Below are positions 806 to 15,940 of a stretch of 24,000 nucleotides of DNA, piece after piece (position 1 is the stretch's first letter; the number at the start of each line of letters is the position of its first letter). Source of the stretch: an uncultured Actinomycetes bacterium. Lineage in GTDB: Bacteria > Actinomycetota > Thermoleophilia > Gaiellales > Gaiellaceae. The position numbers were made by a program, and so were the translations under genes. The notes under the pieces were generated by a model, which saw nothing but the letters and a program-made list of their open reading frames with translations, was not told the DNA's origin and ran no database searches. Where the stretch lies: positions 1,176,522-1,200,521 of the forward strand of contig CAVRPZ010000002.1 of NCBI GenBank assembly GCA_963723345.1. Reading direction: 5' to 3'.

Positions 806-1035
806 GCGTCTGCAGCGCACGGGGCGGCGTCGTCGATAGGTCACTGGAAGGTCGAACAGCTCGCGGATGCGGTCATTCCGCGCTCCCGTCGGGTGCGCAA
901 GCCCTCGACGGGCAGCCGACTGATGCGCCGCGCGGACGGGGCGTGACAGGTGAAGGCACACGTCGCCTGCGGGTCGCTGCCCGCTGGACTCGGCTTCGTG
1001 CCCACGGCGACGTCGTCGCTCGCCGCCTTGGCGTA

Positions 1036-3107
1036 CTACGACGGATCGCGCTCGAGGACCGCGTGGTCGTCTCCCTGCCGCGCGGTGAGCCGCAGAGGCC
1101 TGCCTCTCGCCCAGACGCGGTCGACATGGAGCTCGGTCCAGCCCTTCGGCAACGTGACCGGACGCGCACACCAGCTCTCGGGCTCACCCGGCCCGATCCG
1201 GATACCGGGGAGTCCGTAGAGGCAACTCGTCAGGAAGCCGCCCAGGTTCGCCGTGAAGGGTCCTGCGACGGGCTGCTCGGGGAAAACTGCGGGCGCGTAC
1301 TCGGTCGTCAGCGCGAAAGGATCGATCACGAAGTCGGCGTAGCCCCGCTCGAAGAGCTCGAGCGCACGCTCCCGGTCCCCGAGGCGAGCTGCGTAGACAC
1401 CGAGCAGCGCGGAGAGCATGGGGGCGCCCACGTACTTGTCCGCGAGGCGCAGGTAGAAGTCGAGCGTCGCGCGCTCCACCTCTGCGCTGCACTCGAACGT
1501 GAGCGGGAAGAGCCCGGCGGCGGCCTCCGGCGTCTCGCCCTTCTCCTCGCTCGCCCGGTACAGGTCGTGGTTGCGGATGACGCCGTTCCGGTCGATCCGC
1601 AGGAAAATCGTGCGCGCGAGGTGCTCCCAGCGCGGGTCGGCCACGTGGCCGAGCGGTCGGGCGAGCGCGACGGCCTCTCGCAGCGCGACCGCTGCCGCCA
1701 TGTTCACGAAAGCGTTGTTGTTCGACGTTCTCCTCGCGCTCGGCAATGCCGTTTACGCCGTGGATCTCGAATCCTCGCTCCGTCTCGACTCCCCGACTCA
1801 CGATCCACGTGGCGACGTCTGCCAGAACGTCCCAGGCCCGCTTTCGGCCCCACTCCCAGTCGTGTGTGGCATGCAGGAACTGACTGAAGGCGAAGGCGAC
1901 GTCGAGGCTCACATGGTGCTCGTGGGCGCTCGCGGCGCCCTCCCCGGGCGCTGACTCCTCCCCGTATCGAGGGCTGCTCTCCCACGGGAACTGCGCTCCG
2001 CGGTAGCCCGACATCGAAGCGTTGTGGCGAGCCGCCGGCAGGCGCTCCGCCCGGAACTCGAGGAGCGATCGGGCCGCATCCGGGTTGGTCAGGACGAGCG
2101 GCGGAACGGCGAACATCTCGATGTCCCACATGACGTGACCGCGGTAGTAGTGGTAGTTCGGCCAGTAGGCGAGCCCGAACAGCGACGTGCTGGCGGGCGA
2201 CGAGGCGTGGACGGACGTCTGCAGGTAGAAGTACGCGGCGTCGAGCATCGCCTGCCAGCGCGCTGGCGCGTCGACCTGGACGCGCCCCCGCCAGATCTCG
2301 TCCCACGCAGCCGAGTTCTCGGCGCGTAAACGGTCGAAACCGCGCTCCGTGCCCGGCGAACACGAGCCGCACCGCTTGCAGATCGGGCTCATGGTGCATG
2401 GCGTCCGACACGATGGCCGCGATCTGGCGAAGCCGGTACCGCCTCCCCGAGCGCCCCCGGAACGAGTACCGGGTGGCGAGCGGAGCGACCTCGTTCTCGT
2501 CGACGGAACGCTCGGCCTCCGCGCCAGCGAACTCCGTGACGTATGCGACTCCGGCGAGGCCGACGCCGCCGTGGCTCTCCCAGCGGAGCGAGCCGTCGAC
2601 CGGCTGCTGTTCCGTGCCGCGGGTTCGGGTGGACCGCGCCTTCAGCGTGCCGGGCACCCCGCTGGTGTCCACGCCGGCGGTCAAGACGACATCGCACGCG
2701 CGAGACACGGAGACGCGCACCTCCTGCAGCACGAGCATGGGCATCGTCCTGCTACAGAACGTGAGCACCTCCAGCTCGGCCCCCACGCCCCCCGCGTCGA
2801 AATCGAAGACCGTTCGCAGCTCACCCGCTCCGAAGTCGTACGACTGCTCGCGAAGCTGCGCTCGCTCGGGTGCCGTCTTCAGCGAAACACGGTTCAGCTC
2901 GAGATCCCCGGCCAGGGGGTAGGGCACGCGCGCGAACCCCTCCGCCCCGCTGTCGCCGTCGATGCCGGCGAAGCCGTTGAGGATTGCCAGACCGTCGATC
3001 TGCGGGATTCGAGGCACGCGAAGCCCGACGACTCCGTTCGAGACGTACGCCGGAAGGAACTCCGGCCGATACTCGGTGACGACGGATGGGCTGATCGGCG
3101 TCGTCAC
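1036..3107 (-). pseudogene. Glycoside hydrolase family 65 (kojibiose/trehalose/maltose phosphorylase-like), disrupted by two frameshifts
   Basis: One continuous GH65-like protein is recovered only by joining three minus-strand frames. These are 3107 to ~2355 (N-terminal beta-sandwich), ~2353 to ~1724 (FDRLRAENSAAWDEIW..., FPWESSPRYGEE) and ~1722 to 1036 (NNNAFVNMAA..., C-terminal domain). After each junction the old frame degrades into Arg/Pro/Ala-rich junk. Confidence 0.75.
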
Positions 3108-3114
3108 GGAGCGT

Positions 3115-3261
3115 CTAGAGCAGCCGGATCAGGATGTTGACGAGAATCGTGAGGAGGACCGACACCGCGAGGGAGAGCAGCAGGCAGCCGGGCGAGCAGC
3201 CGTAGACGCGAACGCGACTGCCGGCCAACGTCTTCGGGCGAAGCGGATCATGCGGTTCCAC
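3115..3261 (-). CDS. Possible small hydrophobic protein (48 aa, GTG start), too short for the ORF track
   Basis: My own translation gives VEPHDPLRPKTLAGSRVRVYGCSPGCLLLSLAVSVLLTILVNILIRLL*. The C-terminal 25 residues form one clean TM helix. The RBS is weak, an alternative TTG start lies at 3228, and there is no homology evidence. Confidence 0.25.
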   Translation of the reverse strand: MEPHDPLRPKTLAGSRVRVYGCSPGCLLLSLAVSVLLTILVNILIRLL

Positions 3262-3282
3262 TGGACGGACTCACCCGACCCG

Positions 3283-3320
3283 ACCAACCTGCAAACGCCG
3301 CGTGGCGTTTGCAGGTTGGT
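3283..3320 (-). terminator. Intrinsic-terminator-like hairpin closing the minus-strand stress operon
   Basis: Perfect 17-bp inverted repeat accaacctgcaaacgcc / ggcgtttgcaggttggt with a 4-nt loop (gcgt), 58 nt downstream of the stop at 3378. No U-tract, as is common in high-GC actinobacteria. Confidence 0.6.
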
Positions 3321-3377
3321 TCCTTCGGCTTGCGCATCGTTGACTTCACGCCGGCTTGATGGTCGGCGACGTCGCGG

Positions 3378-4358
3378 TTACCGAGGGGTGGCCGAAGGCG
3401 CGGGGCCAGCAGTCGGCGTCTCTCTCGGCGCAACTTCGCGAGCCTTTTCCTGCAGGCTCTCGGACAACTCCTCACCCTCTTCGCGACCGCGTTCCTTCGC
3501 CGTCTCGATGGCTGTCGCGCCGGCCTCCTGCACGACATCTTTCCCGCGCTCGAAAGCTTCCCGTCCCGCGTCCGCCGCCGTCGCTTTCACATCGTCGGCC
3601 ATTGGCCCGATCCGCTCGTCTTCCATGCGAGTGGAGGGCGCGAGCAGGCCCGCGATGAAACCGACCGCTGCACCGCCGATCGCCAGTCCGACCGGGTTCC
3701 TTTCTGCCAGCCGCTTCATGCGATTCATGCTCTGACTGACCTCCGCACCGTCGGGCGTGATCTCGCCTGCCTTCGACGTGACCCCGCTCACCGTCGAGAC
3801 GACGGCGTCCTTCTTCTCCCCGATCCAGTCCTTTGTCCTGGTCGGCACGTCAGCCTTGTACGCGAGCGCGTCGGCGGTCTCGCTCAGCTGGTCGCGGGTC
3901 TGCTCGATCTCGCTCTTCAGCTCGGTCTGATGTGTGAGCCATGCCACATCCTCCTTCACCGATTCGATTGTCTTTTCGGGCACGGGCGTGCCCACGTCCT
4001 GGATCTTGTTGCGGCCGTACAGCGCCAGAGGCACCGCCACGAGCGCCCATAGCCCGGCAACACACAGCGCCGCCGCCCAATTGGGCATCACGCCATCGAG
4101 CGCGAGGATGAGGAACCCCGTGAACGTACCCAGAGCGAGAAGGCCGGCGACTCCCGCCGCGGTGAGTACTGCGACGCCCGCCCCGGCTTTCTTTCCCTTC
4201 TCGGCCAACTCGGCCTTCGCGAGCTCGAGGTTCTCGTTCAGCTCGACCTTCACGAGTTCGATCTCCTGGTGAACCAGGGTGGTCGCCTGATGCGTGAGAT
4301 CCTTGACCAGCTGGACGGTCGAGCGCTGACGGACGACGTCGCCGTCGATGATCGTCAT
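3378..4358 (-). CDS. Membrane protein: Holin-X (actinobacterial phage-holin family, superfamily III) N-terminal domain fused to a DUF3618-like domain
   Basis: 326 aa. The N-terminus (STVQLVKDLTHQATTLVHQEIELVKVEL...) is followed by two TM helices typical of Holin-X. The middle part (EIEQTRDQLSETADALAYKADV) and a third TM (NPVGLAIGGAAVGFIAGLLAP) are typical of DUF3618. The ATG at 4358 abuts the upstream stop at 4359-4361. Confidence 0.8.
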   Translation of the reverse strand: MTIIDGDVVRQRSTVQLVKDLTHQATTLVHQEIELVKVELNENLELAKAELAEKGKKAGAGVAVLTAAGVAGLLALGTFTGFLILALDGVMPNWAAALCVAGLWALVAVPLALYGRNKIQDVGTPVPEKTIESVKEDVAWLTHQTELKSEIEQTRDQLSETADALAYKADVPTRTKDWIGEKKDAVVSTVSGVTSKAGEITPDGAEVSQSMNRMKRLAERNPVGLAIGGAAVGFIAGLLAPSTRMEDERIGPMADDVKATAADAGREAFERGKDVVQEAGATAIETAKERGREEGEELSESLQEKAREVAPRETPTAGPAPSATPR

Positions 4359-5927: not shown

Positions 5928-6251
5928 ATGGTCGTCATGCAGCACGGCGAGCTCGCGATCTACAGCATTGGCGCCGTTGAGCGCATGCTCGACGTCCCGG
6001 CCGCGACGATCCGAAACTGGGAAGAGCGCTATGGGCTCGTGAAGCCCGAGCGCAGCAACGGCGGCCATCGGCTCTACACACGCGGACAGGTCGAGCAGCT
6101 CCGCTTCGTCAAGGAGGGACTCGATCGAGGGCTGCAGCCCGCCGAGGCCCATCGCCTGCTCGGCGAGCAGCTCGCGCGCCGCAGCGGCGTTCGCGTCAAC
6201 GGATGCGAGCGAGCAGGCGCCTCGCCTTCTGATCCTGCTCGCCGAGCGTGA
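5928..6251 (+). CDS. MerR-family HTH regulator (LitR/CarH-class DNA-binding domain); probably the N-terminal part of a frameshifted MerR-receiver fusion
   Basis: IYSIGAVERMLDVPAATIRNWEERYGLVKPERSNGGHRLYTRGQVEQLRFV is a MerR wHTH of the same subclass as the LitR at 13086-13967. After about residue 85 the frame yields a featureless tail, while the +1 frame continues into a receiver domain. Confidence 0.8.
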   Translation: MVVMQHGELAIYSIGAVERMLDVPAATIRNWEERYGLVKPERSNGGHRLYTRGQVEQLRFVKEGLDRGLQPAEAHRLLGEQLARRSGVRVNGCERAGASPSDPARRA

Positions 6252-6600: not shown

Positions 6601-7988
6601 GCGAGCGTCTCCTGAGCGGCCATTCCCGCCTCGACGGCGTGCTCGGGGGCGGCCTCCCGGTGGACGCAATCAACATGCTCATCGGGCTTCCGGGAACCGG
6701 CAAGACGATCCTCGCTCAGCAATACCTGTTCGCGAACGCGACGATCGAGCGGCCCGGCTTGTACCTCGCCACGGTGTCGGAACCATTCGACAAGATCCTC
6801 CGCTACGGCCAGAGCCTCCGCTTCTTCGACCCTGGAGCGGTCGGCAACTCGGTCTTCTACGAGGACCTCGGCCCGGCTCTCAACGAGCGCGGCCTCGCCG
6901 GCGTCCTCGAGCAGGTGACCGCGCTGATCAAGGAGCGCCGCCCGGGAATCATCGTGATCGACAGCTTCAAGGCGCTCTCTGCCTACGCGGAGGCTGCCGA
7001 GTTTCGCCGCTTCCTCCACGATTTCGCCGGCCACCTGTCCGCCTTCCCGGCCTCGTCGTTTTGGATCGGCGAGTACGGCGAAGAGGAGATCGCCGTGGCA
7101 CCCGAATTCGCGGTCGCCGACGCCATCATCAGCCTCTCCACGACGCGAGCGTCCGAGCGCGAGACGCGCTCCCTCCGCGTCCTCAAGCTACGGGGAAGCG
7201 AATTCGCTCCCGGCCAGCACGCCTACCGCCTCTCGGCCAACGGGATCGACGTCTTCCCGCGGCTGGCCGACCAGATCGACATGACCAGCTACCCGCTCGA
7301 CGGAGCCAGGCACTCATCCGGGATCGCCGCCCTCGACGACATGCTCGCCGACGGTTACTGGCCCGGCGCCTCCACGCTCTGCGCTGGCCCCTCGGGCTGC
7401 GGCAAGACCCTGATGGGCCTGCACTTCATCTTCAACGGCGTCCGTCAGGGCGAACCCGGTGTGCTGGCGACGCTCCAGGAACACCCGACCCAGCTCGCGC
7501 GGATCGTCGAGGGGTTCGGGTGGTCGGTTGACGAGGAGGGCGTCGAGCTGATGTACCGCTCGCCTGTCGACATGTACATCGACGAGTGGGTCTATGACCT
7601 CCTCGAGACGGTGGAGCGCACCGGAGCACGCCGTGTCCTCATCGATAGCCTCACCGATCTCAAGCTCGCCTCGCCGGACGAGATCCGGTTCCGCGAATAC
7701 ATGTACTCGCTCGTCCAGCGCTTCTCCCGCCAGGGAGTCAGCGTGTTCATGACCTCGGAGCTACCAGACCTCTTCCACGTGAGGCGACTCTCCGAGTTCG
7801 GCGTCTCACACCTCTCCGACAACGTCGTGCTCCTCCAATACACCCGCGACCAAGCAACCGTTCGGCGCGCCCTCACCGTCTTGAAGACGCGCGCAAGCCG
7901 ACACGAACCGGAAACCCGCGAGTTCAGAATCACTCCCGAAGGGATCGTGCTCGGTGACCCGTTCATCCCTGCACAAAGGTTCGACTAG
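6597..7988 (+). CDS. KaiC-like double-domain RecA-superfamily ATPase
   Basis: 463 aa with two tandem KaiC/RecA-like domains. Walker A motifs are GLPGTGKT (6684-6707) and GPSGCGKT (7386-7409); Walker B-like motifs are GIIVIDSF and RRVLIDSL. The domain ends LKLRGSEF...Y.LS..GI.VFPR and LKTRASRHE...REF.ITPEGI are typical of KaiC-family proteins. The 6411 start in the track is an off-target extension through the receiver gene. Confidence 0.9.
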   Translation: MSERLLSGHSRLDGVLGGGLPVDAINMLIGLPGTGKTILAQQYLFANATIERPGLYLATVSEPFDKILRYGQSLRFFDPGAVGNSVFYEDLGPALNERGLAGVLEQVTALIKERRPGIIVIDSFKALSAYAEAAEFRRFLHDFAGHLSAFPASSFWIGEYGEEEIAVAPEFAVADAIISLSTTRASERETRSLRVLKLRGSEFAPGQHAYRLSANGIDVFPRLADQIDMTSYPLDGARHSSGIAALDDMLADGYWPGASTLCAGPSGCGKTLMGLHFIFNGVRQGEPGVLATLQEHPTQLARIVEGFGWSVDEEGVELMYRSPVDMYIDEWVYDLLETVERTGARRVLIDSLTDLKLASPDEIRFREYMYSLVQRFSRQGVSVFMTSELPDLFHVRRLSEFGVSHLSDNVVLLQYTRDQATVRRALTVLKTRASRHEPETREFRITPEGIVLGDPFIPAQRFD

Positions 7989-8025
7989 CACGAACCGCGC
8001 GACAGGTAGGCGGACGAGCGCGCAC

Positions 8026-9144
8026 GTGCACGTCACCGACCTGCTCCTGCTGGAGGAACTCCACGCCCAGTTGCCGGTCGGCTTGCTCGTCAACGACGCC
8101 GACACGCTCGAGATCCTCCACGCCAGCCCCCCACTTCCGGGTTTCGCCGGTCACGACCTGCCGCTCGATCAGCTGATCCAATCGCACAAGGACGAACGCC
8201 AGCCGCTCGGCCAAGCAGATGAACTGGCGGCACTCGTCGCAGACGTAGCCGCGACCGGAAGGCCGCGTCACCTACGCGAGTTCCGTCACGACTCCCCAGG
8301 GCAGGAGCCGAACTGGTGGAGCGCAACCCTCCGTCGCATCGACACCGACCGCTGGGGCCCAGTCGTAGTCACGCTCGCGGTCGACACGACCGACCAGGTT
8401 CGCGCCCGGCATCTCCTGGAGGAGCGCGAACGGCGGCACGTGGCCCTGCAGCAAGAGATCGCCGCCGTTCCCGGCCACAACCTCGTCTCCTCCCTCCAGC
8501 AGGTTGCCGATGCCCTCGTCCCCGCCCTACAGGCCGACGTAGCCACGATCCGACTGCTCGGCGCAGACGCCAAGCTCCACCTCGTCGCCGCTAGCGGCCT
8601 TCGCCCCGCCGAGACTCGACGCCTCGCCCTGGACCCGATCACCCTACGCCGGCTCGAGACGATGATCGAAAGCGGGCCGCCGACAGCCCTCGGATCGCTC
8701 GGCCTCCACTGGGTCGAGGTGCGGTGGCTCGAGGCCGGCGGCAAACGGATCGGGATTCTGACGATCGGTGCGCGCAGCAAGCGGCGTCCGCCCGAGGACG
8801 ACCTCACGCTGCTCAACGCCGCATCAGTGCAGCTCGGCCACGCCCTGGAGAACATCGAGCGGAGCCCGCAGTTCCTTCGAAGCCGTTCTCTCGAGGTGGC
8901 CCGCGTGAACACGGACGTAGGCGAGGCCGCGCAAGCCCGCAGCGCCGACCTCCGCCCACGCGAGCTCGCGATTCTCCGCCTCTACGGCGAAGGACTCCGA
9001 ACAGATCAAGTCGCCGAACTACTCGTTCTCTCCCCGCACACAGTCCGGACACACGTGAGGAACGCCCGCCGCCGCCTTGGCGTCAGCTCCCGAGCCGAGG
9101 CACTCGACCTTCTCAAAGCTGCCGAGGCCGATCCCTCTGTGTGA
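8026..9144 (+). CDS. PAS-GAF-LuxR (HTH) transcriptional regulator
   Basis: N-terminal PAS-like fold (LPVGLLVNDADTLEILHAS...WWSATLRRI...VVVTLAVDTTDQV). Central GAF (LQQVADALVPALQADVATIRLL...LHLVAASG...RIGILTIGAR...LLNAASVQLGHALEN). C-terminal LuxR HTH (LRPRELAILRLYGEGLRTDQVAELLVLSPHTVRTHVRNARRRLGV). Start is uncertain: GTG 8026 is preferred because ATG 7954 would overlap kaiC-like by 35 nt and add a low-complexity extension. Confidence 0.8.
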   Translation: MHVTDLLLLEELHAQLPVGLLVNDADTLEILHASPPLPGFAGHDLPLDQLIQSHKDERQPLGQADELAALVADVAATGRPRHLREFRHDSPGQEPNWWSATLRRIDTDRWGPVVVTLAVDTTDQVRARHLLEERERRHVALQQEIAAVPGHNLVSSLQQVADALVPALQADVATIRLLGADAKLHLVAASGLRPAETRRLALDPITLRRLETMIESGPPTALGSLGLHWVEVRWLEAGGKRIGILTIGARSKRRPPEDDLTLLNAASVQLGHALENIERSPQFLRSRSLEVARVNTDVGEAAQARSADLRPRELAILRLYGEGLRTDQVAELLVLSPHTVRTHVRNARRRLGVSSRAEALDLLKAAEADPSV

Positions 9145-9199
9145 CCGACGGAAGAGATCGCTGCTCCCTGACTCATCGGTAGGTTCTCCTGCAGAAGTC

Positions 9200-9940
9200 A
9201 TGACCCGTCTGCGCTCCGGCAACCTCGCCCTCGCCGCACTCCATGGCGGCCAGGCCGTCTTGATCGTCGTCCTCGGGGCGACGCTTGCGATACCGATCAC
9301 GGCGCAGTGGGCGGACGGCCCGCCGGGTTCCGCGCTCGGCCCGACGGAGACGCTCTTCGACCTCCCGGTGCGCTGGTGCGTGGCCGCGTTCCTGTTGCTG
9401 GCGGCGTTGGATCACCTGCTCGTCGCCTCGCCGGGAGTCGTGTCCTGGTACGAGCGGAACCTCCGCCGCGGGATCAACTACGCGCGCTGGATCGAGTACT
9501 CCTTCAGCGCCTCGCTGATGGTCGTCCTGATCGCTGCGTTCGCGGGCGTCACCGATCTCCGTGCGCTCGTGGCCGTCGCGGGTGTCAACGCCGCGATGAT
9601 CCTCTTCGGGCTCCTCATGGAGCGCACGAACGTGGGCCGCGATCGGCCCGACTGGCTGCCGTTCTGGTTCGGATGCATTGCCGGCGCGGTCCCGTGGATC
9701 GTCATCGGGATCTCGCTCGTCGGGGCGGAGATCGACGGGAGTGTGCCCGGCTTCGTGTGGGCGATCTTCGTCTCCCTGTTCCTGTTCTTCAACTGCTTCG
9801 CGGTCAACATGTGGCTGCAGTACCGCCGGATCGGCGCCTGGCGCAGCTACGTGTTCGGCGAGTGGGGCTACCTGGTTCTCAGCCTCACCGCGAAGAGCGC
9901 GCTCGCCTGGCAGATCTACGCCGGCGCGCTCGCGAGCTGA
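9200..9940 (+). CDS. Heliorhodopsin (retinal-binding, inverted-topology 7TM photoreceptor)
   Basis: 246 aa. Blocks match my recollection of the founding heliorhodopsin 48C12: GPPG; NYARWIEYSFSASLMVVLIA (counterion Glu, codon 9494-9496); LPFWFGCIAGAVPWI; VPGFVWAIFVSLFLFFNCFAV; LVLSLTAKSALAWQIYAG (Schiff-base Lys, codon 9893-9895). Both conserved His residues are present (AALHGGQ, ALDHLLV). ATG 9200 is chosen; the 9077 start overlaps the LuxR gene. Confidence 0.9.
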   Translation: MTRLRSGNLALAALHGGQAVLIVVLGATLAIPITAQWADGPPGSALGPTETLFDLPVRWCVAAFLLLAALDHLLVASPGVVSWYERNLRRGINYARWIEYSFSASLMVVLIAAFAGVTDLRALVAVAGVNAAMILFGLLMERTNVGRDRPDWLPFWFGCIAGAVPWIVIGISLVGAEIDGSVPGFVWAIFVSLFLFFNCFAVNMWLQYRRIGAWRSYVFGEWGYLVLSLTAKSALAWQIYAGALAS

Positions 9941-10178
9941 GTCGGCGACGTCGAGCTGGCGCCCGCGCCCGGTCGACACGGCAGTTCACGTGGCACTCGG
10001 TCGCTCGGTCGGGTTCTGCTGAGCTGGGCCGAACTCACGGCCCGCAGCGGCGAGCGCCAAGAGCCTCCTCGAGTCGGCTGGTACTGTGGTGGCGATCGCA
10101 GGAATCAGAGCGAGTACCGGTCTTGGCTTAACACGCCTTCCGCTGCACGTTCATGAAGCAGTCGAAGGAGGTGGAGAT

Positions 10179-10391
10179 ATGCCAACCGGAACCGTGAAGT
10201 GGTTCAACGACGACAAGGGCTACGGCTTCGTGTCGCCGGACGACGGGAGCAAGGACGTCTTTGTTCACCACAGCGCGATCGGCGGCGAGGGGTTCAAGAG
10301 CCTCGCCGAGGGCGCGAAGGTGGAGTACGAGGTCGAGCAGGGCCCGAAGGGCCCGCAGGCGCGCAGCGTCAGCGTCGTCGCGTCGGTCTGA
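10179..10391 (+). CDS. cspA: Cold-shock protein (CspA family)
   Basis: [34 protein letters not shown] carries the RNP1/RNP2 motifs. GAAGGAGGTGGA RBS directly upstream of ATG 10179. Confidence 0.95.
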
Positions 10392-10397
10392 GCTCGT

Positions 10398-10426
10398 GGG
10401 GCGCACCGCCGTAGGCGGTGCGCCCC
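10398..10426 (+). terminator. Intrinsic-terminator-like hairpin after csp
   Basis: Perfect 13-bp stem ggggcgcaccgcc / ggcggtgcgcccc with a 3-nt loop, starting 7 nt after the csp stop codon. No T-tract. Confidence 0.7.
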
Positions 10427-10534
10427 CGTCTCACTTCGAGCCAGGGCTCGAGCGAGCTGCACGGAAGGTCGACGTGGACGGCGCCGAAGTGCCCGCCACG
10501 CGGATCGAGCGGAAGGAGCTGTGCCATCGCCGAC

Positions 10535-11650
10535 ATGGGGCCGCTGGGGAGCGCCTCCCCGCCGAAGCTCTCGTTCGACAACGGCGGCGACTTCATCAAG
10601 CAGACGCGCCGCGAGGTCGAGGAGTATCTCTCTGCCCGGCGTACCCGGGTGCGCGGACGCGTCGAGCTGTATGCCAAAGGGATCGTCGCGTTCGTCGTCC
10701 TGTCCGCGTCGTGGCTGACGCTCGTGCTCGGCCAACCCGGCCCGTGGCTCGGTCTCGTCAGCTTCGGCGGGCTGATCCTCGGCACCTCGCTCATCGCGTT
10801 CTGCGTGATGCACGACGCCAATCACGGCGCCTATTTCCGGACACGCCGGCTGAACCACCTGATGGGCTGGACGGCCGATGTGCTACTCGGGCTCTCGAGC
10901 TACGCCTGGCGCGTGAAGCACAACGTCGCCCATCACACCTATACGAACGTCGACGGCTACGACGCCGACATCACGCAGGTGCCGTTCGCGCGACTGACGC
11001 CCGTGCAGGCACCCCGTCCCTGGTACCGGCTGCAGCACTACTACATCTGGGCGCTGTACTGCGTGATGGCGCTCCGCTGGCAGACCGTCGGCGACGTCGC
11101 CGCATTGGCCCGGGGAAGCATCGGGACGAGCGCGTTGCGCATGCCGCGCCGCTGGGATCTCGCCGGCCTCGTCGGTGGGAAGGTGATCTTCGTCGGGTGG
11201 GCGATCGTCGTGCCGATGCTCGTCTATCCGTGGTGGGCAGTCCTCTGCGGCTATCTCGTCTACTCGATGGTCGTGAGCCTGATCATGGCCGTGACCTTCC
11301 AGCTCGCACACTGCGTCGAGGAAGCCGACTTCGCCTCGGCCGAGGAGCTCGCCAGCGAGCGGCGGCTCTGGGCGGTGCACGAGGTCGAGACGACGGTCGA
11401 CTTCTGCCCGCGCAACCCGGTGCTCGGCTGGGTGGTCGGCGGCCTCAACTACCAGATCGAGCACCACCTGTTTCCTCGGGTGCCGCACACGCACTACGCG
11501 CACATCGCCACGATCGTCCAGCGGAACGCCGAGCGACACGGTGTCCGCTACGTCACCCAGCGCTCGCTGCGCTCGGCCCTCCGGTCGCACTTCCGGCACC
11601 TGCGCACGATGGGCAGGAGGGGCGTCCCGGTCGCACTCGAGATGGGCTGA
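10535..11650 (+). CDS. Membrane fatty-acid desaturase (Delta6/front-end-desaturase-like, no cytochrome b5 domain)
   Basis: Three histidine boxes, HDANHG, HNVAHH and QIEHH, with TM segments in the canonical arrangement. ATG 10535 (MGPLGSASPPKLSF...) is chosen; the upstream part of the 10418 ORF runs through the csp terminator. Confidence 0.9.
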   Translation: MGPLGSASPPKLSFDNGGDFIKQTRREVEEYLSARRTRVRGRVELYAKGIVAFVVLSASWLTLVLGQPGPWLGLVSFGGLILGTSLIAFCVMHDANHGAYFRTRRLNHLMGWTADVLLGLSSYAWRVKHNVAHHTYTNVDGYDADITQVPFARLTPVQAPRPWYRLQHYYIWALYCVMALRWQTVGDVAALARGSIGTSALRMPRRWDLAGLVGGKVIFVGWAIVVPMLVYPWWAVLCGYLVYSMVVSLIMAVTFQLAHCVEEADFASAEELASERRLWAVHEVETTVDFCPRNPVLGWVVGGLNYQIEHHLFPRVPHTHYAHIATIVQRNAERHGVRYVTQRSLRSALRSHFRHLRTMGRRGVPVALEMG

Positions 11651-11695
11651 GCTCCCGTCGGGAACCGGGCCGCTCGGGCGGGGCGACGGGATCGG

Positions 11696-12583
11696 TCAGC
11701 CGGCCATGGAGCCACTCGAGAGAGCAGCACGTGCGGCGTCCTCGAAAGAGGTGAGCGGGAACGGGAGCAGAGCGCGCAGACGATCGTCGCGTACGACCGT
11801 CGGGTTGCGAAGACCTTCGATCAACGGGCGCGCGACACCCGCCCTCACCGGCGTGACGAGGTGGAGCCAATACGAGGAGAGCCTGGGGCTCAGCACGGGC
11901 ACCTCGACGATGAGACGCCGCCGGCCGCGGATGTGCGCGATCCGCTCGATCATCTCCTTGTAGCTGAGCACGTCCGGACCGCCGACGTCGAAGCTCTGAC
12001 CCCGGGCCTCGGGCATGCGCGCGACCCCGACGAGGTAACGGACGACGTCCGCCAGGGCGATGGGCTGGGTGGGCGTCGACACCCATCTCGGCGCGATCAT
12101 CGCCGGCAGCCGGTCGACGAGCGAGACGATCGTCTCGAAGGCGGCGCTGCCACGGCCGATCACGACGGCCGCGCGCAGCGTCGTAAGCGGAACGGCGCCG
12201 GACGAGAGCGCAACGGCCGTCTCGAGCCTGCTTCGCAGGTGCGGCGACAGGTCGGGCCGGTCGTCGCCGAGGCCTCCGAGGTACACGAGCTGGGAGACAC
12301 CTGCGTGTTCGGCTTCGCGGGCGACCGTCTCGGCTGCTCGGCGATCGACCACCGCGTAGTCCGGAGTCCCCAGGGAGTGGACGAGGTAGTACGCCACCTC
12401 GACGCCCTCGAGCGACCGGCGGACCGATGTGGAGTCAGTGACGTCGGCAGCGATCGGCCGTACACCCTCGACCGGCGAGGCATCGGGTCTCCGCGAGACG
12501 GCGACCACCTCCTCGGAACGGGCGAGGGCCGAGACGAGGGCCGTGCCGACCACGCCCGACGCTCCCAGCACCGCGACCGTCAC
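11696..12583 (-). CDS. NAD(P)H-binding protein, NmrA-like/atypical SDR family
   Basis: N-terminal Rossmann motif VAVLGASGVVG, 295 aa, typical NmrA/YbjT-like length. The GTG start at 12583 overlaps the upstream stop (GTGA). Confidence 0.85.
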   Translation of the reverse strand: MTVAVLGASGVVGTALVSALARSEEVVAVSRRPDASPVEGVRPIAADVTDSTSVRRSLEGVEVAYYLVHSLGTPDYAVVDRRAAETVAREAEHAGVSQLVYLGGLGDDRPDLSPHLRSRLETAVALSSGAVPLTTLRAAVVIGRGSAAFETIVSLVDRLPAMIAPRWVSTPTQPIALADVVRYLVGVARMPEARGQSFDVGGPDVLSYKEMIERIAHIRGRRRLIVEVPVLSPRLSSYWLHLVTPVRAGVARPLIEGLRNPTVVRDDRLRALLPFPLTSFEDAARAALSSGSMAG

Positions 12584-13089
12584 GAATGTGCCTCGGCGAT
12601 GAGTCGGGCGAAGTAGCGCCGGCTGATCGCCGCATGGAGTCGCTGCTGCGCGAATCCGAGCGTCGCTCCCAGCCGTGGTACGAACTCGGTCACCTCCGCG
12701 CGCAGCTCGACGTCCACGGCGCCGACCTGCGACAGGGCCAGCGAGCCGCCCTCTCGGCGCGCGAGCACGCCACCGCGGATCGGGTAGGTGCAGCTCACCC
12801 GCTCGTCCCCGACGGACGTCTCGGCAGGCCCGAAGCTGAGGAGGGCCGGGCCTCGTCCCAGCAGGCGCAGCTCGACTCCCTCCGTCTCCTGGCGGCAGCG
12901 GACCAGTCCCCGGCTGGCGCGCACTGCTTCGCGCCAGTATCGCTGCCCGAGGGCTCTTGCCCCCGAATCCGATCGCTCGACGACGGGCCGGGCGGAGCTC
13001 GCGCGCTGGACGGACGCGTAGGTCCCGTCCTCGCTCCTCGTCTGCACGGAGCTCCAGGCTTCGAGGCGGCGGGGCACGCGAGGGCTCAC
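12580..13089 (-). CDS. Hypothetical protein (169 aa), translationally coupled between the litR-like and NmrA-like genes
   Basis: The C-terminal ~120 aa has protein-like composition (YWREAVRASRGLVRCRQETEGVELRLLGRGPALLSFG...YPIRGGVLARREGGSLAL...FAQQRLHAAISRRYFARLIAE). GTG 13089 overlaps the litR stop (GTGA) and the stop overlaps the next GTG (GTGA). I do not recognise the family. Alternative GTG starts lie 12 and ~39 nt downstream. Confidence 0.6.
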   Translation of the reverse strand: MSPRVPRRLEAWSSVQTRSEDGTYASVQRASSARPVVERSDSGARALGQRYWREAVRASRGLVRCRQETEGVELRLLGRGPALLSFGPAETSVGDERVSCTYPIRGGVLARREGGSLALSQVGAVDVELRAEVTEFVPRLGATLGFAQQRLHAAISRRYFARLIAEAHS

Positions 13090-13967
13090 TCCGAGTGGAG
13101 AAGAGCGGTCACCCGCTCCGCCTCCCGGACCGGATCGTCGGTCAGCGCGAGCGCATCGAGGCCCGTCGTTCGGAGGCCTTCGGCTCCGGCGCCGCCCACT
13201 GCGAGCCGCCGCTGGCGCGCGATCTGTCGGAGGTCCGCGGCGAGCTCTCCAACCCGCTCCGGCGTCACGGAGCTCACGACGACGAGATCGACGTCGAGGG
13301 ACTCGGCGACGCCCCGGATGGTGTCGAGGGGGGTGTCCGCTCCGAGGTACTCGACCCGCCACCCGTGCGTGCGCAGTGCGAGACCGAAGGCGAGGAGGCC
13401 GAGCTCGTGCTGCTCTCCCGGGGCGCAGGCAAGGAGCGCGCGGGGACCCAGTCCCCGTCCCCAGCCCCGGGCGATTCCGAGCAGACGACCGCGAACGATG
13501 TTGGATGCGAAGTGCTCCTGCGCCACCGTGACCTCGCCACGCTCCCACCGGGCTCCGAGGTCGCGCAGGTACGGCATGACGATCTCGGAGAGGAACACGT
13601 CGAGTGTGACCTCTGCGAGGAGTCGGTCGAAGATCGCGTGTGCACGAGGCTCGTCGAACCCCTCGAGCGCGGCCGCGAGCTGGCCGACGGCGGCCATCGA
13701 CGACGCACGAGCGGTGGCGACCTGTGTGCTCTCGCCGGGGCCGCGTACCGCCGCAGCGGCAGCCTCGGCGGCGGCCAGCCCGTCTGCCAGGTGCTGCTGC
13801 ATGACGCGGACGCGCTCGAGATCGGCCAGCGAATAGAGGCGGAGGCCTCCGGGCGAGCGGATGGGCTCGAGCAAGCCGTAGCGGCGTTCCCAGGCGCGAA
13901 GCAGCTCGGGGCTGACTCCCGAGCGTCGGCTCAGCTCGCCGATCCGCAGCTGCGCTGGCTCTGACAT
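13086..13967 (-). CDS. litR: CarH/LitR-type MerR-family regulator with B12-binding domain (adenosylcobalamin-dependent light sensor)
   Basis: 293 aa. MerR wHTH (LRIGELSRRSGVSPELLRAWERRYGLLEPIRSPGGLRLY). Four-helix-bundle motif W-x9-EH (WERGEVTVAQEH, nt 13512-13547). Cobalamin-binding E-x-H-x-x-G (GEQHELG, His codon 13407-13409), then VVSSV and VGGAG. The 14339 start in the track is a junk extension through the intergenic region. Confidence 0.9.
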   Translation of the reverse strand: MSEPAQLRIGELSRRSGVSPELLRAWERRYGLLEPIRSPGGLRLYSLADLERVRVMQQHLADGLAAAEAAAAAVRGPGESTQVATARASSMAAVGQLAAALEGFDEPRAHAIFDRLLAEVTLDVFLSEIVMPYLRDLGARWERGEVTVAQEHFASNIVRGRLLGIARGWGRGLGPRALLACAPGEQHELGLLAFGLALRTHGWRVEYLGADTPLDTIRGVAESLDVDLVVVSSVTPERVGELAADLRQIARQRRLAVGGAGAEGLRTTGLDALALTDDPVREAERVTALLHSE

Positions 13968-13971
13968 GCCC

Positions 13972-14004
13972 CAAATATACAGAATCTGTACGAAACCTTG
14001 ACAA
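13972..14004 (+). promoter_or_regulatory. Candidate CarH/LitR operator: three tandem 11-bp direct repeats matching nAnnTnnACAn
   Basis: DR1 13972-13982 cAaaTatACAg; DR2 13983-13993 aAtcTgtACGa; DR3 13994-14004 aAccTtgACAa. DR3 covers the TTGACA -35 of the plus-strand promoter. The array also spans a minus-strand TATATT (13974-13979) 6 nt upstream of the litR ATG and contains the palindrome TACAGAATCTGTA (13978-13990). Confidence 0.5.
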
Positions 14005-14027
14005 GAACATCCGGCCGGTGGTACTGT
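13998..14027 (+). promoter_or_regulatory. Sigma-70-like promoter for the DUF378/fasciclin genes
   Basis: TTGACA (13998-14003), 18-nt spacer, TACTGT (14022-14027) preceded by TGG. It lies about 40 nt upstream of ATG 14067, which has a GGAGGTG RBS. Confidence 0.45.
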
Positions 14028-14066
14028 GCCGCATCTGAACAAATCATTGACAGGAGGTGAACAGCA

Positions 14067-14315
14067 ATGAAGAAGATTGACCTGCTCGCTGCAGTGCTCG
14101 TCCTGGTCGGCGCCCTCAACTGGGGTCTCGTGGCGATCGCCGAGTTCGATCTCGTCGCGACGGTCTTCGGCATGGAGTTCGGCGAGACCAACGCCGCGAG
14201 CCGGATCGTCTACGGGCTCGTCGGCCTGGCCGGCGTCTACGGCGTCGTCTCGCTGGCGACTCGACGTTCGGCCGCCGCGACCCTCCCCGCAAGGACCTCG
14301 TCGGCCTCGCACTGA
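14067..14315 (+). CDS. DUF378 domain-containing membrane protein
   Basis: MKKIDLLAAVLVLVGALNWGLVAIAEFDLVATVFG...SRIVYGLVGLAGVY is the characteristic DUF378 two-helix signature. Confidence 0.9.
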   Translation: MKKIDLLAAVLVLVGALNWGLVAIAEFDLVATVFGMEFGETNAASRIVYGLVGLAGVYGVVSLATRRSAAATLPARTSSASH

Positions 14316-14356
14316 CGGAACACACCACCGCACACACACGAGAAAGGACTATCGAC

Positions 14357-14854
14357 ATGAGAAATGCACGCTTCATCCTCGCGCTGCTCGCCGTCGCGGC
14401 GGTTGCCGCTGCTGCGATGGGAGCGTCTGCTTCCGCGAACACCAGCAAGGAAGGGGACGTCGTCTCGACGGCCGCCGGCGCGGGCAACTTCACGACGCTC
14501 ACCTCGCTCCTGAAGAAGGCGGGCCTCGTCGGCGCGCTCCAGGCCAAGGGGCCGTTCACCGTCCTCGCCCCGACCGACGCGGCCTTCGCGAAGGTGCCCA
14601 AGTCGACTCTCGCAGCGCTCGGCGCCGATCGGGCGAAGCTCAGGTCGGTGCTCAAGTACCACGTGATCGCCGGCAAGGTTCCTGCGGCGAAAGTGGTCAA
14701 GCTGCGCTCGGCAAAGACGCTCAACGGGCAGGCTGTCCGGATCCGCGTCGTCGAAGGCAAGGTCTTCGTCGGTGGCGCACGGGTGGTGAAGACGGACATC
14801 GCTGCATCGAACGGCGTCATTCATGCCATCAACCAGGTGCTGATCCCTCGCTAG
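14357..14854 (+). CDS. Secreted fasciclin (FAS1) domain protein
   Basis: Signal peptide (MRNARFILALLAVAAVAAAAMGASASA) followed by a FAS1 domain (FTTLTSLLKKAGL...GPFTVLAPTDAAF...LKYHVIAGKV...ASNGVIHAINQVLIP). Confidence 0.9.
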   Translation: MRNARFILALLAVAAVAAAAMGASASANTSKEGDVVSTAAGAGNFTTLTSLLKKAGLVGALQAKGPFTVLAPTDAAFAKVPKSTLAALGADRAKLRSVLKYHVIAGKVPAAKVVKLRSAKTLNGQAVRIRVVEGKVFVGGARVVKTDIAASNGVIHAINQVLIPR

Positions 14855-14865
14855 GCGAGGGGTGC

Positions 14866-14901
14866 GCCGACCGCCCGGCGCTGACGCGCCGGGCGGTCGG
14901 C
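14866..14901 (+). terminator. Intrinsic-terminator-like hairpin after the fasciclin gene
   Basis: Perfect 16-bp stem gccgaccgcccggcgc / gcgccgggcggtcggc with loop tgac, beginning 12 nt after the stop codon. Confidence 0.7.
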
Positions 14902-15137
14902 TCGCGACGGCTCTGCATGAACGAGTTCTTGCGGGATGTCTCCTGGACACCTCCACGTTCTTTCTCGCGCTCGCGTGGGACTCCGTCCAGGATGGAGCGG
15001 TGCGAGCTCCACGCGATCGACGACGGAGAGCGACTGCTCGTATTCGATCCGCTGGCCCTGCCGAGCGAGCTCGAGGGGTCTAGGGCCAGCGCGCTGCTCG
15101 CGGGGGCCAAGAGGGCCACGCGCTTACGTCGAGATGT

Positions 15138-15664: not shown

Positions 15665-15940
15665 GTGAACCCCGACCCGGACTTGACACAGCTCTATACA
15701 GCTGCTCGACGGGCAAGCGAAGAGTTGGTCAAGCGCCTGGAGGTCTACGAGGAGCTCGTGCCGGCGCGAGCGAACGAGGCGGCTGTGGCCGACGAGGTCG
15801 TGGAGTTCACGCGGTTCGCGGAACGACAGTTCAGGGGCTGGTACGAGCGCTGCCGCGATCTCCGCGAGATGCTCGAGGATCCCGCACTACGCGCACCTCC
15901 CGGTTCGCGCGCGCCTGACGCCGACCCTCGGGGCGAGTAG
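15665..15940 (+). CDS. Hypothetical protein (91 aa)
   Basis: GTG 15665 with GGAGG (15653-15657) 7 nt upstream. Helical, acidic sequence (LYTAARRASEELVKRLEVYEELV...FTRFAERQFRGWYERCRDLREMLEDP). No family recognised. Confidence 0.55.
   Translation: MNPDPDLTQLYTAARRASEELVKRLEVYEELVPARANEAAVADEVVEFTRFAERQFRGWYERCRDLREMLEDPALRAPPGSRAPDADPRGE

Follow-up and report, generated by a model that had tools for sequence, protein, structure and literature searches.

The window analysed here is a stretch of 24,000 nucleotides on contig CAVRPZ010000002.1 of an uncultured member of the Gaiellaceae (class Thermoleophilia, phylum Actinomycetota; GenBank assembly GCA_963723345.1). On its minus strand, at 13086-13967, lies a carH/litR gene for a 293-residue protein in which a MerR winged helix-turn-helix (wHTH) is followed by a four-helix bundle and a Rossmann B12-binding domain. 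We find that this protein is a genuine but ordinary member of a well-known family of B12-based light-sensing repressors, and we consider it quite likely that it acts as an adenosylcobalamin (AdoCbl)-dependent, light-responsive repressor of two divergent operons. The evidence consists of the domain architecture, motifs and fold of the protein, of operator arrays that are unique in the genome and conserved among relatives, and of synteny.

The carH gene, its signatures and its predicted chromophore

The carH frame comprises 293 codons and is translated without internal stops. A search with the Pfam models found MerR_1 at residues 8-69, B12-binding_2 at 96-161 and B12-binding at 176-267, all three above their curated cut-offs (50 bits for MerR_1). 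This is the architecture that the original prediction, made by a model from the sequence alone, had proposed, and the frame, the domains and the motif patterns confirm its observation of a CarH/LitR-type gene at 13086-13967. The start at 13967 was preferred to a longer frame because the carH homologues of relatives share this MSE.../VSE... start and the database relatives are 292-299 residues long. The longer frame, a 417-residue version of the open reading frame from a GTG at 14339, was rejected as a high-GC artefact; it would cross the operator region and overlap DUF378 on the opposite strand, and its extension is present in no homologue. The genome holds a single CarH.

The motifs were checked as regular-expression patterns. 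The signatures published for CarH by the Murcia group are RxWERRY, Wx9EH and D/ExHx2G/P-x41-SxT/V-x22-27-GG (PMC9304148), and they also separate CarH from its B12-independent paralogue CarA (PMC9304148). All three are present with exact spacing. The DNA-recognition-helix motif RxWERRY of CarH and CarA (PMC9304148) appears as RAWERRY at residues 24-30 (13878-13898, minus strand, as for all the motifs given here) and is unvarying across 36 relatives. The Wx9EH motif, predicted to cap the upper axial adenosyl group, is W141-x9-E151-H152 (WERGEVTVAQEH, residues 141-152; 13512-13547); its three residues align to W131, E141 and H142 of Thermus thermophilus CarH (TtCarH), and it is likewise unvarying among relatives. 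The motif of the Rossmann module is a perfect fit: E185-Q-H187-E-L-G190 (EQHELG; 13398-13415), in which H187 is the predicted lower axial cobalt ligand, is followed, x41 after G190, by the SxT/V element S232-S-V234 (13266-13274) and, x23 after V234, by the GG element G258-G259 (13191-13196).

Comparison with solved structures points to the same family. The best sequence matches in the PDB are TtCarH/LitR (E about 3e-35, residues 8-271), of which W131, E141, H142, H177, G160, G192 and D201 are all conserved in the window CarH. An AF2 model built on 36 relatives reached a pLDDT of 86, and every top Foldseek match to it in the PDB is TtCarH, with the B12-binding domain superposing at a target-normalised TM of 0.83-0.86 and a root-mean-square deviation of about 2.5 Å. 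At least 7,946 database proteins match the window CarH at E <= 1e-10, and the JGI name of its close relatives is 'MerR family transcriptional regulator, light-induced transcriptional regulator'. As one more CarH/LitR homologue it therefore adds little, the family having thousands of members and a solved mechanism. What gives the locus some value is a predicted regulon of four genes free of pigment functions, a double three-repeat operator, a Glu in place of the light-state His, and a linkage of CarH, fasciclin and heliorhodopsin at the level of the family.

The genome also encodes means of supplying the chromophore. A PduO-type adenosyltransferase is encoded at C3:415869, and the only cobalamin riboswitch found in the genome (G000 C3:1228148-1228330, locus L057) stands before a Peripla_BP_2 (BtuF-like) gene. 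A search for CobS in the genome, the assembly of which is 87.5% complete, gave no match. Given the presence of the adenosyltransferase and of the riboswitch with its BtuF-like gene, and given that CobS was not found, the organism is suggested to be a B12 auxotroph that salvages and adenosylates cobalamin; the cofactor probably comes from import and adenosylation and not from de novo synthesis. Collectively, the architecture, the three signature motifs, the fold, the CarH-type operator described below and the chromophore supply support the assignment to the CarH/LitR family of AdoCbl photoreceptors, which bears out the assignment made in the original prediction.

Operator arrays and the predicted regulon

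The operators of known CarH proteins consist of tandem copies of the consensus nnnnTnnACAn, of which the TtCarH operator has three and that of BmCarH four (PMC9304148). The region between the start of carH (13967) and that of the divergent DUF378 gene (14067) is 99 bp long and contains two arrays, each of three contiguous 11-bp TnnACA repeats. Site 1 (13972-14004, plus strand) reads cAaaTatACAg aAtcTgtACGa aAccTtgACAa and overlies both the putative -10 hexamer of carH, TATATT (13979-13974, minus strand), and the putative -35 hexamer of DUF378, TTGACA (13998-14003). Site 2 (14032-14064, plus strand) reads catcTgaACAa atcaTtgACAg gaggTgaACAg; it begins 28 bp downstream of site 1, the two arrays being 5 bp out of phase, and spans from about +1 of the predicted DUF378 transcript through the Shine-Dalgarno sequence to end 2 nt before the ATG.

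These two arrays are the only three-unit tandem matches to nnnnTnnAC[AG]n on either strand of the 2.94-Mb genome, and the same three-unit pattern gave 0, 0, 0, 0 and 1 matches in five shuffled genomes. Relatives with a CarH of only 52-63% identity preserve every repeat of both arrays, and in about 1 Mb of sequence from 80 further loci such arrays occur almost exclusively less than 100 bp upstream of a carH homologue. The carH start codon is in every case separated by 6 nt from the end of a conserved hexamer, TATATT or TATAGT, a fixed distance that fits an apparently leaderless carH mRNA, and the TTGACA facing DUF378 is perfectly conserved.

Some smaller observations on the arrays may be added. 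The last repeat of site 2 is placed between the Shine-Dalgarno sequence and the start codon of DUF378, and site 2 is kept in most relatives and displaced by exactly one repeat in two of them. When one mismatch was allowed, so that 11 of the 12 fixed positions had to agree, 13 extra matches appeared; they are GC-rich strings ending in ACG, lack the AT-rich context and were taken as noise. A two-repeat match lies at 15691-15712, within a small open reading frame.

The predicted regulon comprises the genes on either side of these arrays. Behind carH, the second gene of its operon (12580-13089, minus strand) begins at a GTG that overlaps the carH stop codon (GTGA) and encodes 169 residues, or 165 if the second GTG is the start. 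No Pfam family (up to E = 10) or NCBIfam family was found for this protein, which has at least 256 homologues, all of them called hypothetical. Its model is confident (pLDDT 93), and a fold search gave a weak resemblance to the START/Bet v 1 helix-grip lipid- or ligand-binding proteins (TM 0.45-0.52). The third gene (11696-12583, minus strand), the start of which again overlaps the upstream stop codon (GTGA), encodes a 295-residue NmrA/SDR-like NAD(P)-binding protein. In every case the gene after that of the 169-residue family encodes an NmrA-like NAD(P)-binding protein, and the two proteins may represent the split form of SDR-SRPBCC fusion proteins. On the other side, the divergent operon consists of the gene for the small DUF378 membrane protein (14067-14315, plus strand) and a gene for a fasciclin (FAS1) domain protein (14357-14854, plus strand) that looks secreted, to judge from a signal-peptide-like segment at its N-terminus.

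The arrangement fasciclin<-DUF378|carH->169-aa->NmrA is a recurring block in the 20 relatives examined (within 9 kb on either side) and is syntenic in most relatives of the genus. Relatives of 87-88% identity share only 11673-14947 of the window at the DNA level, which delimits a CarH module of 3.3 kb. The best-supported prediction for the CarH regulon is carH-START-like-NmrA-like together with DUF378-fasciclin, two small operons of presumed envelope or lipid function and not pigment genes. Phytoene synthase and photolyase were not found in a search of the genome at its 87.5% completeness, and for an assembly of that completeness a carotenoid or photolyase regulon was rejected as a candidate. 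For a soil lineage without pigmentation, the reach of the light switch appears to be limited to four genes, and what its operator would define is a predicted light regulon that is both minimal and cleanly delimited.

In other lineages, too, DUF378 and/or fasciclin genes adjoin CarH homologues that are only 34-39% identical (loci L079, L094, L095, L103, L113 and L115), the hosts being uncultured bacteria, an Acidobacteriota metagenome-assembled genome and Candidatus Fervidifonticultor; beside the fasciclin start of L094 and L103 there are ACA repeats spaced 11 bp apart. Regulation of fasciclin/DUF378 by CarH may be widespread though undescribed, and a literature search on DUF378 with light found no paper describing such a link. 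Elsewhere in the window, a second MerR-type helix-turn-helix at 5955-6152, upstream of a KaiC-like gene, is 42% identical to the N-terminus of CarH and is without a B12 domain.

Proposed mechanism and its alternatives

AdoCbl binding, photochemistry, oligomeric state, repression and promoter positions are assigned here by analogy with the CarH proteins of Thermus, Bacillus and Myxococcus, and lead to the following proposal. The protein would be a class-I CarH/LitR-type repressor with adenosylcobalamin as its chromophore. In the dark, AdoCbl would be bound with His187 as the lower axial ligand and with Trp141, Glu151 and His152 packed on the adenosyl group, and this binding would bring about oligomerisation, probably to a tetramer. 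The oligomer would occupy the tandem 11-bp TnnACA repeats of the 99-bp carH/DUF378 intergenic region; at site 1 it would cover the core promoter of the apparently leaderless carH together with the -35 hexamer of the divergent promoter, and at site 2 the transcript start and ribosome-binding region of DUF378. Since sites 1 and 2 cover the promoter or start regions of both operons, carH-START-like-NmrA-like and DUF378-fasciclin would both be off in the dark. Upon illumination, the Co-C bond would be cleaved and the adenosyl group lost, the oligomer would drop in affinity for DNA, and both operons would be derepressed. Because Glu142 stands for the His of TtCarH that forms the bis-His state, we predict a light state in which cobalamin takes an aquo/hydroxo form or the cofactor is lost, and not a bis-His state.

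TtCarH (= LitR; PDB 5C8A/5C8D/5C8E/5C8F and 3WHP) has the same three-part architecture and is 32-36% identical to the window CarH over its whole length (Foldseek). The two proteins share RxWERRY, Wx9EH, ExHxxG..SxV..GG, the interface glycines and D201, and the two systems share three tandem 11-bp TnnACA repeats over a divergent promoter that includes that of the regulator's own gene. They differ in that the window CarH has Glu for His132 and Gln for Arg176, in that the window has two three-repeat arrays, the second lying 28 bp downstream, and in their targets, which would be DUF378/fasciclin and START-like/NmrA-like genes here as opposed to crtB and other carotenoid genes there. The CarH proteins of Bacillus megaterium and Cystobacter bind in an AdoCbl-dependent manner to more than three 11-bp repeats, some of them over -10 and -35 elements (PMC9304148), and illustrate that neither the size of the operator nor the oligomeric state is fixed across the family (PMC9304148). 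At their carotenoid promoters, each operator is one array of 4-5 repeats, whereas the window has two separate three-repeat arrays, 5 bp out of phase. Streptomyces LitR (class I LitR; PMC11519972) is likewise an actinobacterial MerR and AdoB12 light-dependent regulator; it acts through its partner, the extracytoplasmic-function sigma factor LitS, to switch on crt genes, whereas the module in the window is without a sigma factor gene.

Several results weigh against the proposed AdoCbl-dependent light repression of the two operons, or against its details. The NCBIfam equivalog model NF052513, 'HTH-type transcriptional repressor CarH', matches the protein at E 1e-45 over positions 7-264 of its 274 positions with 156 bits, short of the 400-bit cut-off, so the window CarH is best regarded as a family member by homology and not as a close orthologue or equivalog of the characterised proteins. 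A generic sigma-70 and terminator scan called no promoter or terminator in 11600-15100, and for this reason the promoter and leaderless assignments are putative, being read from the conserved hexamers only. As the genome is only 87.5% complete, crt, photolyase and cobS are 'not found' rather than 'absent'. Lastly, alignment to TtCarH places Glu142 at the position of His132 and Gln186 at that of Arg176. The original prediction had described every diagnostic motif as intact; Wx9EH, ExHxxG, SSV and GG are indeed present, and in view of the two substitutions the wording was a slight overstatement.

The substitutions bear on the light state in particular. In TtCarH, His132 is the upper cobalt ligand of the bis-His light state that follows photolysis (PMC10442372), and Poddar et al. 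found that most H132A TtCarH, both full-length and as the B12-binding domain (CBD) only, was still tetrameric in light (PMC10442372); on that analogy, light-driven disassembly cannot be taken for granted in a protein with Glu142. Gln186, for its part, takes away one partner of the TtCarH dimer salt bridge, the other partner of which, D201, is conserved as D211; the interface glycines G160 and G192 are conserved as G170 and G202, and no pair that would make up for the lost bridge was identified. No His follows the Trp in any of 21 relatives of the genus and order. Among 80 more distant, diverse loci it does so in 8 of the 72 motif-bearing proteins; the search patterns for this sample included EQHE, and the residue before the axial His is biased in it while the residue after the Trp is not. 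Although 'many' CarH homologues carry the His132 equivalent (PMC9304148), its presence in only 8 of these 72 proteins argues that His132 is not family-defining, and the light-state chemistry of TtCarH should not be copied unchanged onto a protein that lacks its equivalent. A clade without the light-state His of TtCarH is a natural test of the generality of the bis-His/disassembly model.

These considerations raise the alternative of a CarH-family light sensor with a mechanism materially unlike that of TtCarH, which we regard as possible although rather unlikely. Such a protein could be a dimer or a dimer of dimers, as in Cystobacter CarH, or could respond through cofactor loss or conformational change instead of a tetramer-to-monomer transition, and the two triple-repeat sites could be bound cooperatively by two oligomers. 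Besides Glu142 and Gln186, the genus-level alignment without any His after the Trp and the light-stable H132A tetramers (PMC10442372), it would account for the six repeats in two arrays with phases 5 bp apart, and there is precedent for CarH homologues that differ in oligomeric state and have 4-5 repeats (PMC9304148). However, each array has exactly three repeats, as in the TtCarH operator, G170 and G202 (the dimer-dimer interface glycines of TtCarH) and D211 are conserved, and a residue other than His after the Trp is the majority state in the diverse sample, which includes Deinococcus and Peribacillus loci. A far more improbable alternative is that light is not the signal, and that the protein is a B12-binding MerR regulator reporting cobalamin availability or redox state, or a CarA-like, B12-independent repressor that needs an antirepressor. 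MerR and B12-binding architecture alone is no proof of light sensing, and Myxococcus xanthus CarA, which has a MerR domain with RxWERRY and a B12-binding motif as the window CarH does, works without B12 (PMC9304148). But CarA is without the Trp of Wx9EH (PMC9304148), whereas the window CarH has Trp141 and the whole motif and hence is not CarA-like; this motif, the loss of which sets CarA apart from CarH, is intact and unvarying in relatives, the targets have no link to B12 metabolism, and B12 homeostasis is served by the riboswitch on the uptake gene.

Heliorhodopsin and CarH in the Gaiellaceae

The original prediction had placed a heliorhodopsin (HeR) about 3 kb from CarH and had described two light sensors in one locus, with cold-response genes between them. 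The heliorhodopsin is real (9200-9940, plus strand; 320 bits with Pfam, 299 bits with the NCBIfam HeR model), and 3.1 kb separate its end at 9940 from the 3' end of carH. The intervening DNA does contain a CSD cold-shock gene (csp) and a fatty-acid desaturase gene, together with the second and third genes of the carH operon, which had gone unmentioned. That HeR and CarH form one functional two-photoreceptor unit here, with CarH controlling HeR or HeR acting on products of the regulon, and with csp and the desaturase in the same response, we judge improbable. The operator searches found no repeat array before the HeR, csp or desaturase gene; HeR lies outside both CarH-controlled transcription units, and the HeR-csp-desaturase genes point toward the carH operon and its 3' end, HeR not being read from a promoter under CarH control. 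The relatives of 87-88% identity are without HeR, csp and desaturase beside the CarH module, a 95%-identical HeR of the same genus is located elsewhere without these neighbours, and among 61 near relatives CarH was found in 35 and HeR in only 5, the two never being adjacent. The order fasciclin-DUF378-carH-169aa-NmrA-desaturase-csp-HeR is kept in only one relative, of 95% identity (a 1.15-Mb ENA contig). Synteny breakpoints bound the segments 9155-11675 and 11673-14947, and HeR-csp-desaturase (9155-11675) behaves as a separate unit of 2.5 kb.

The evidence on the other side comes from a comparison of 401 genomes across the class. At least 6 of the 18 HeR-bearing genomes of the Gaiellaceae, belonging to six genera, have CarH within 5 kb of HeR, against a chance expectation of about 0.1, and in the CarH tree the HeR-linked genes fall in three different well-supported subclades. 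Four of the six have the order carH <- | CarH-type repeat operator | -> fasciclin (1-3 copies) -> HeR, with HeR last and directly after the fasciclin genes that face the operator. The retention of the order from HeR to fasciclin in the 95%-identical relative also speaks for a functional unit, and 'MerR family transcriptional regulator' and 'SDR' are among ten frequent operon neighbours of HeR (PMC11109279). The window CarH itself belongs to a 14-member clade (98/99 support) that is otherwise free of HeR, and HeR-CarH adjacency was not seen in the other families of the class in the 401-genome comparison. No paper that links heliorhodopsin to LitR, CarH or fasciclin came up in searches of the literature.

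The recurrence of the adjacency in the family, as shown by the class-wide comparison, speaks against pure coincidence. There is a real tendency in the Gaiellaceae to link HeR and CarH; but given the lack of an HeR operator and the poor synteny here, set against the pairing in at least 6 of 18 genomes, HeR and CarH probably act independently in this genome and are linked as a family-level trend. Of the earlier claims, the independence of the photoreceptor is probably right for this genome, and the picture of one locus with two light sensors is weakly supported, with no operator at HeR and with the pairing holding at the level of the family. More tentatively, and on balance we think it unlikely, CarH and HeR of the Gaiellaceae could belong to one light-response gene set with a conserved core of envelope and lipid proteins (DUF378, secreted fasciclin, the START-like protein and the NmrA-like reductase), in which CarH would gate HeR directly in several genera through a CarH|fasciclin-HeR operon, and the HeR of the window would be what rearrangement has left of this set, its functional tie to the regulon being retained. 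If true, this would provide a testable handle on the role of heliorhodopsin in soil actinobacteria; sister genera, in which CarH, fasciclin and heliorhodopsin are repeatedly linked, are a place to study under what conditions heliorhodopsins are expressed and for what purpose.

The carH|fasciclin-HeR loci come from four other genera of the Gaiellaceae (L144, 1953-4658; L145, 8091-11242; L146, 8021-11614; L147, 8008-10178). Their fasciclin and HeR genes are co-directional with short gaps, and HeR may be light-induced through CarH in these loci. Three-repeat arrays are present in L144, L146 and L147, and L145 has only a two-repeat match; the carH of L147 is broken by stop codons.

Rearrangement around the module is apparent in close relatives. 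The 95%-identical relative shares 9155-14940 of the window and continues beyond HeR with DNA matching 990-3420, the segment 3420-9155 being missing there. In another close relative (L061), the CarH module is inverted and comes after the KaiC/LuxR block (7042-9155), with 2.9 kb of unrelated DNA between the two.

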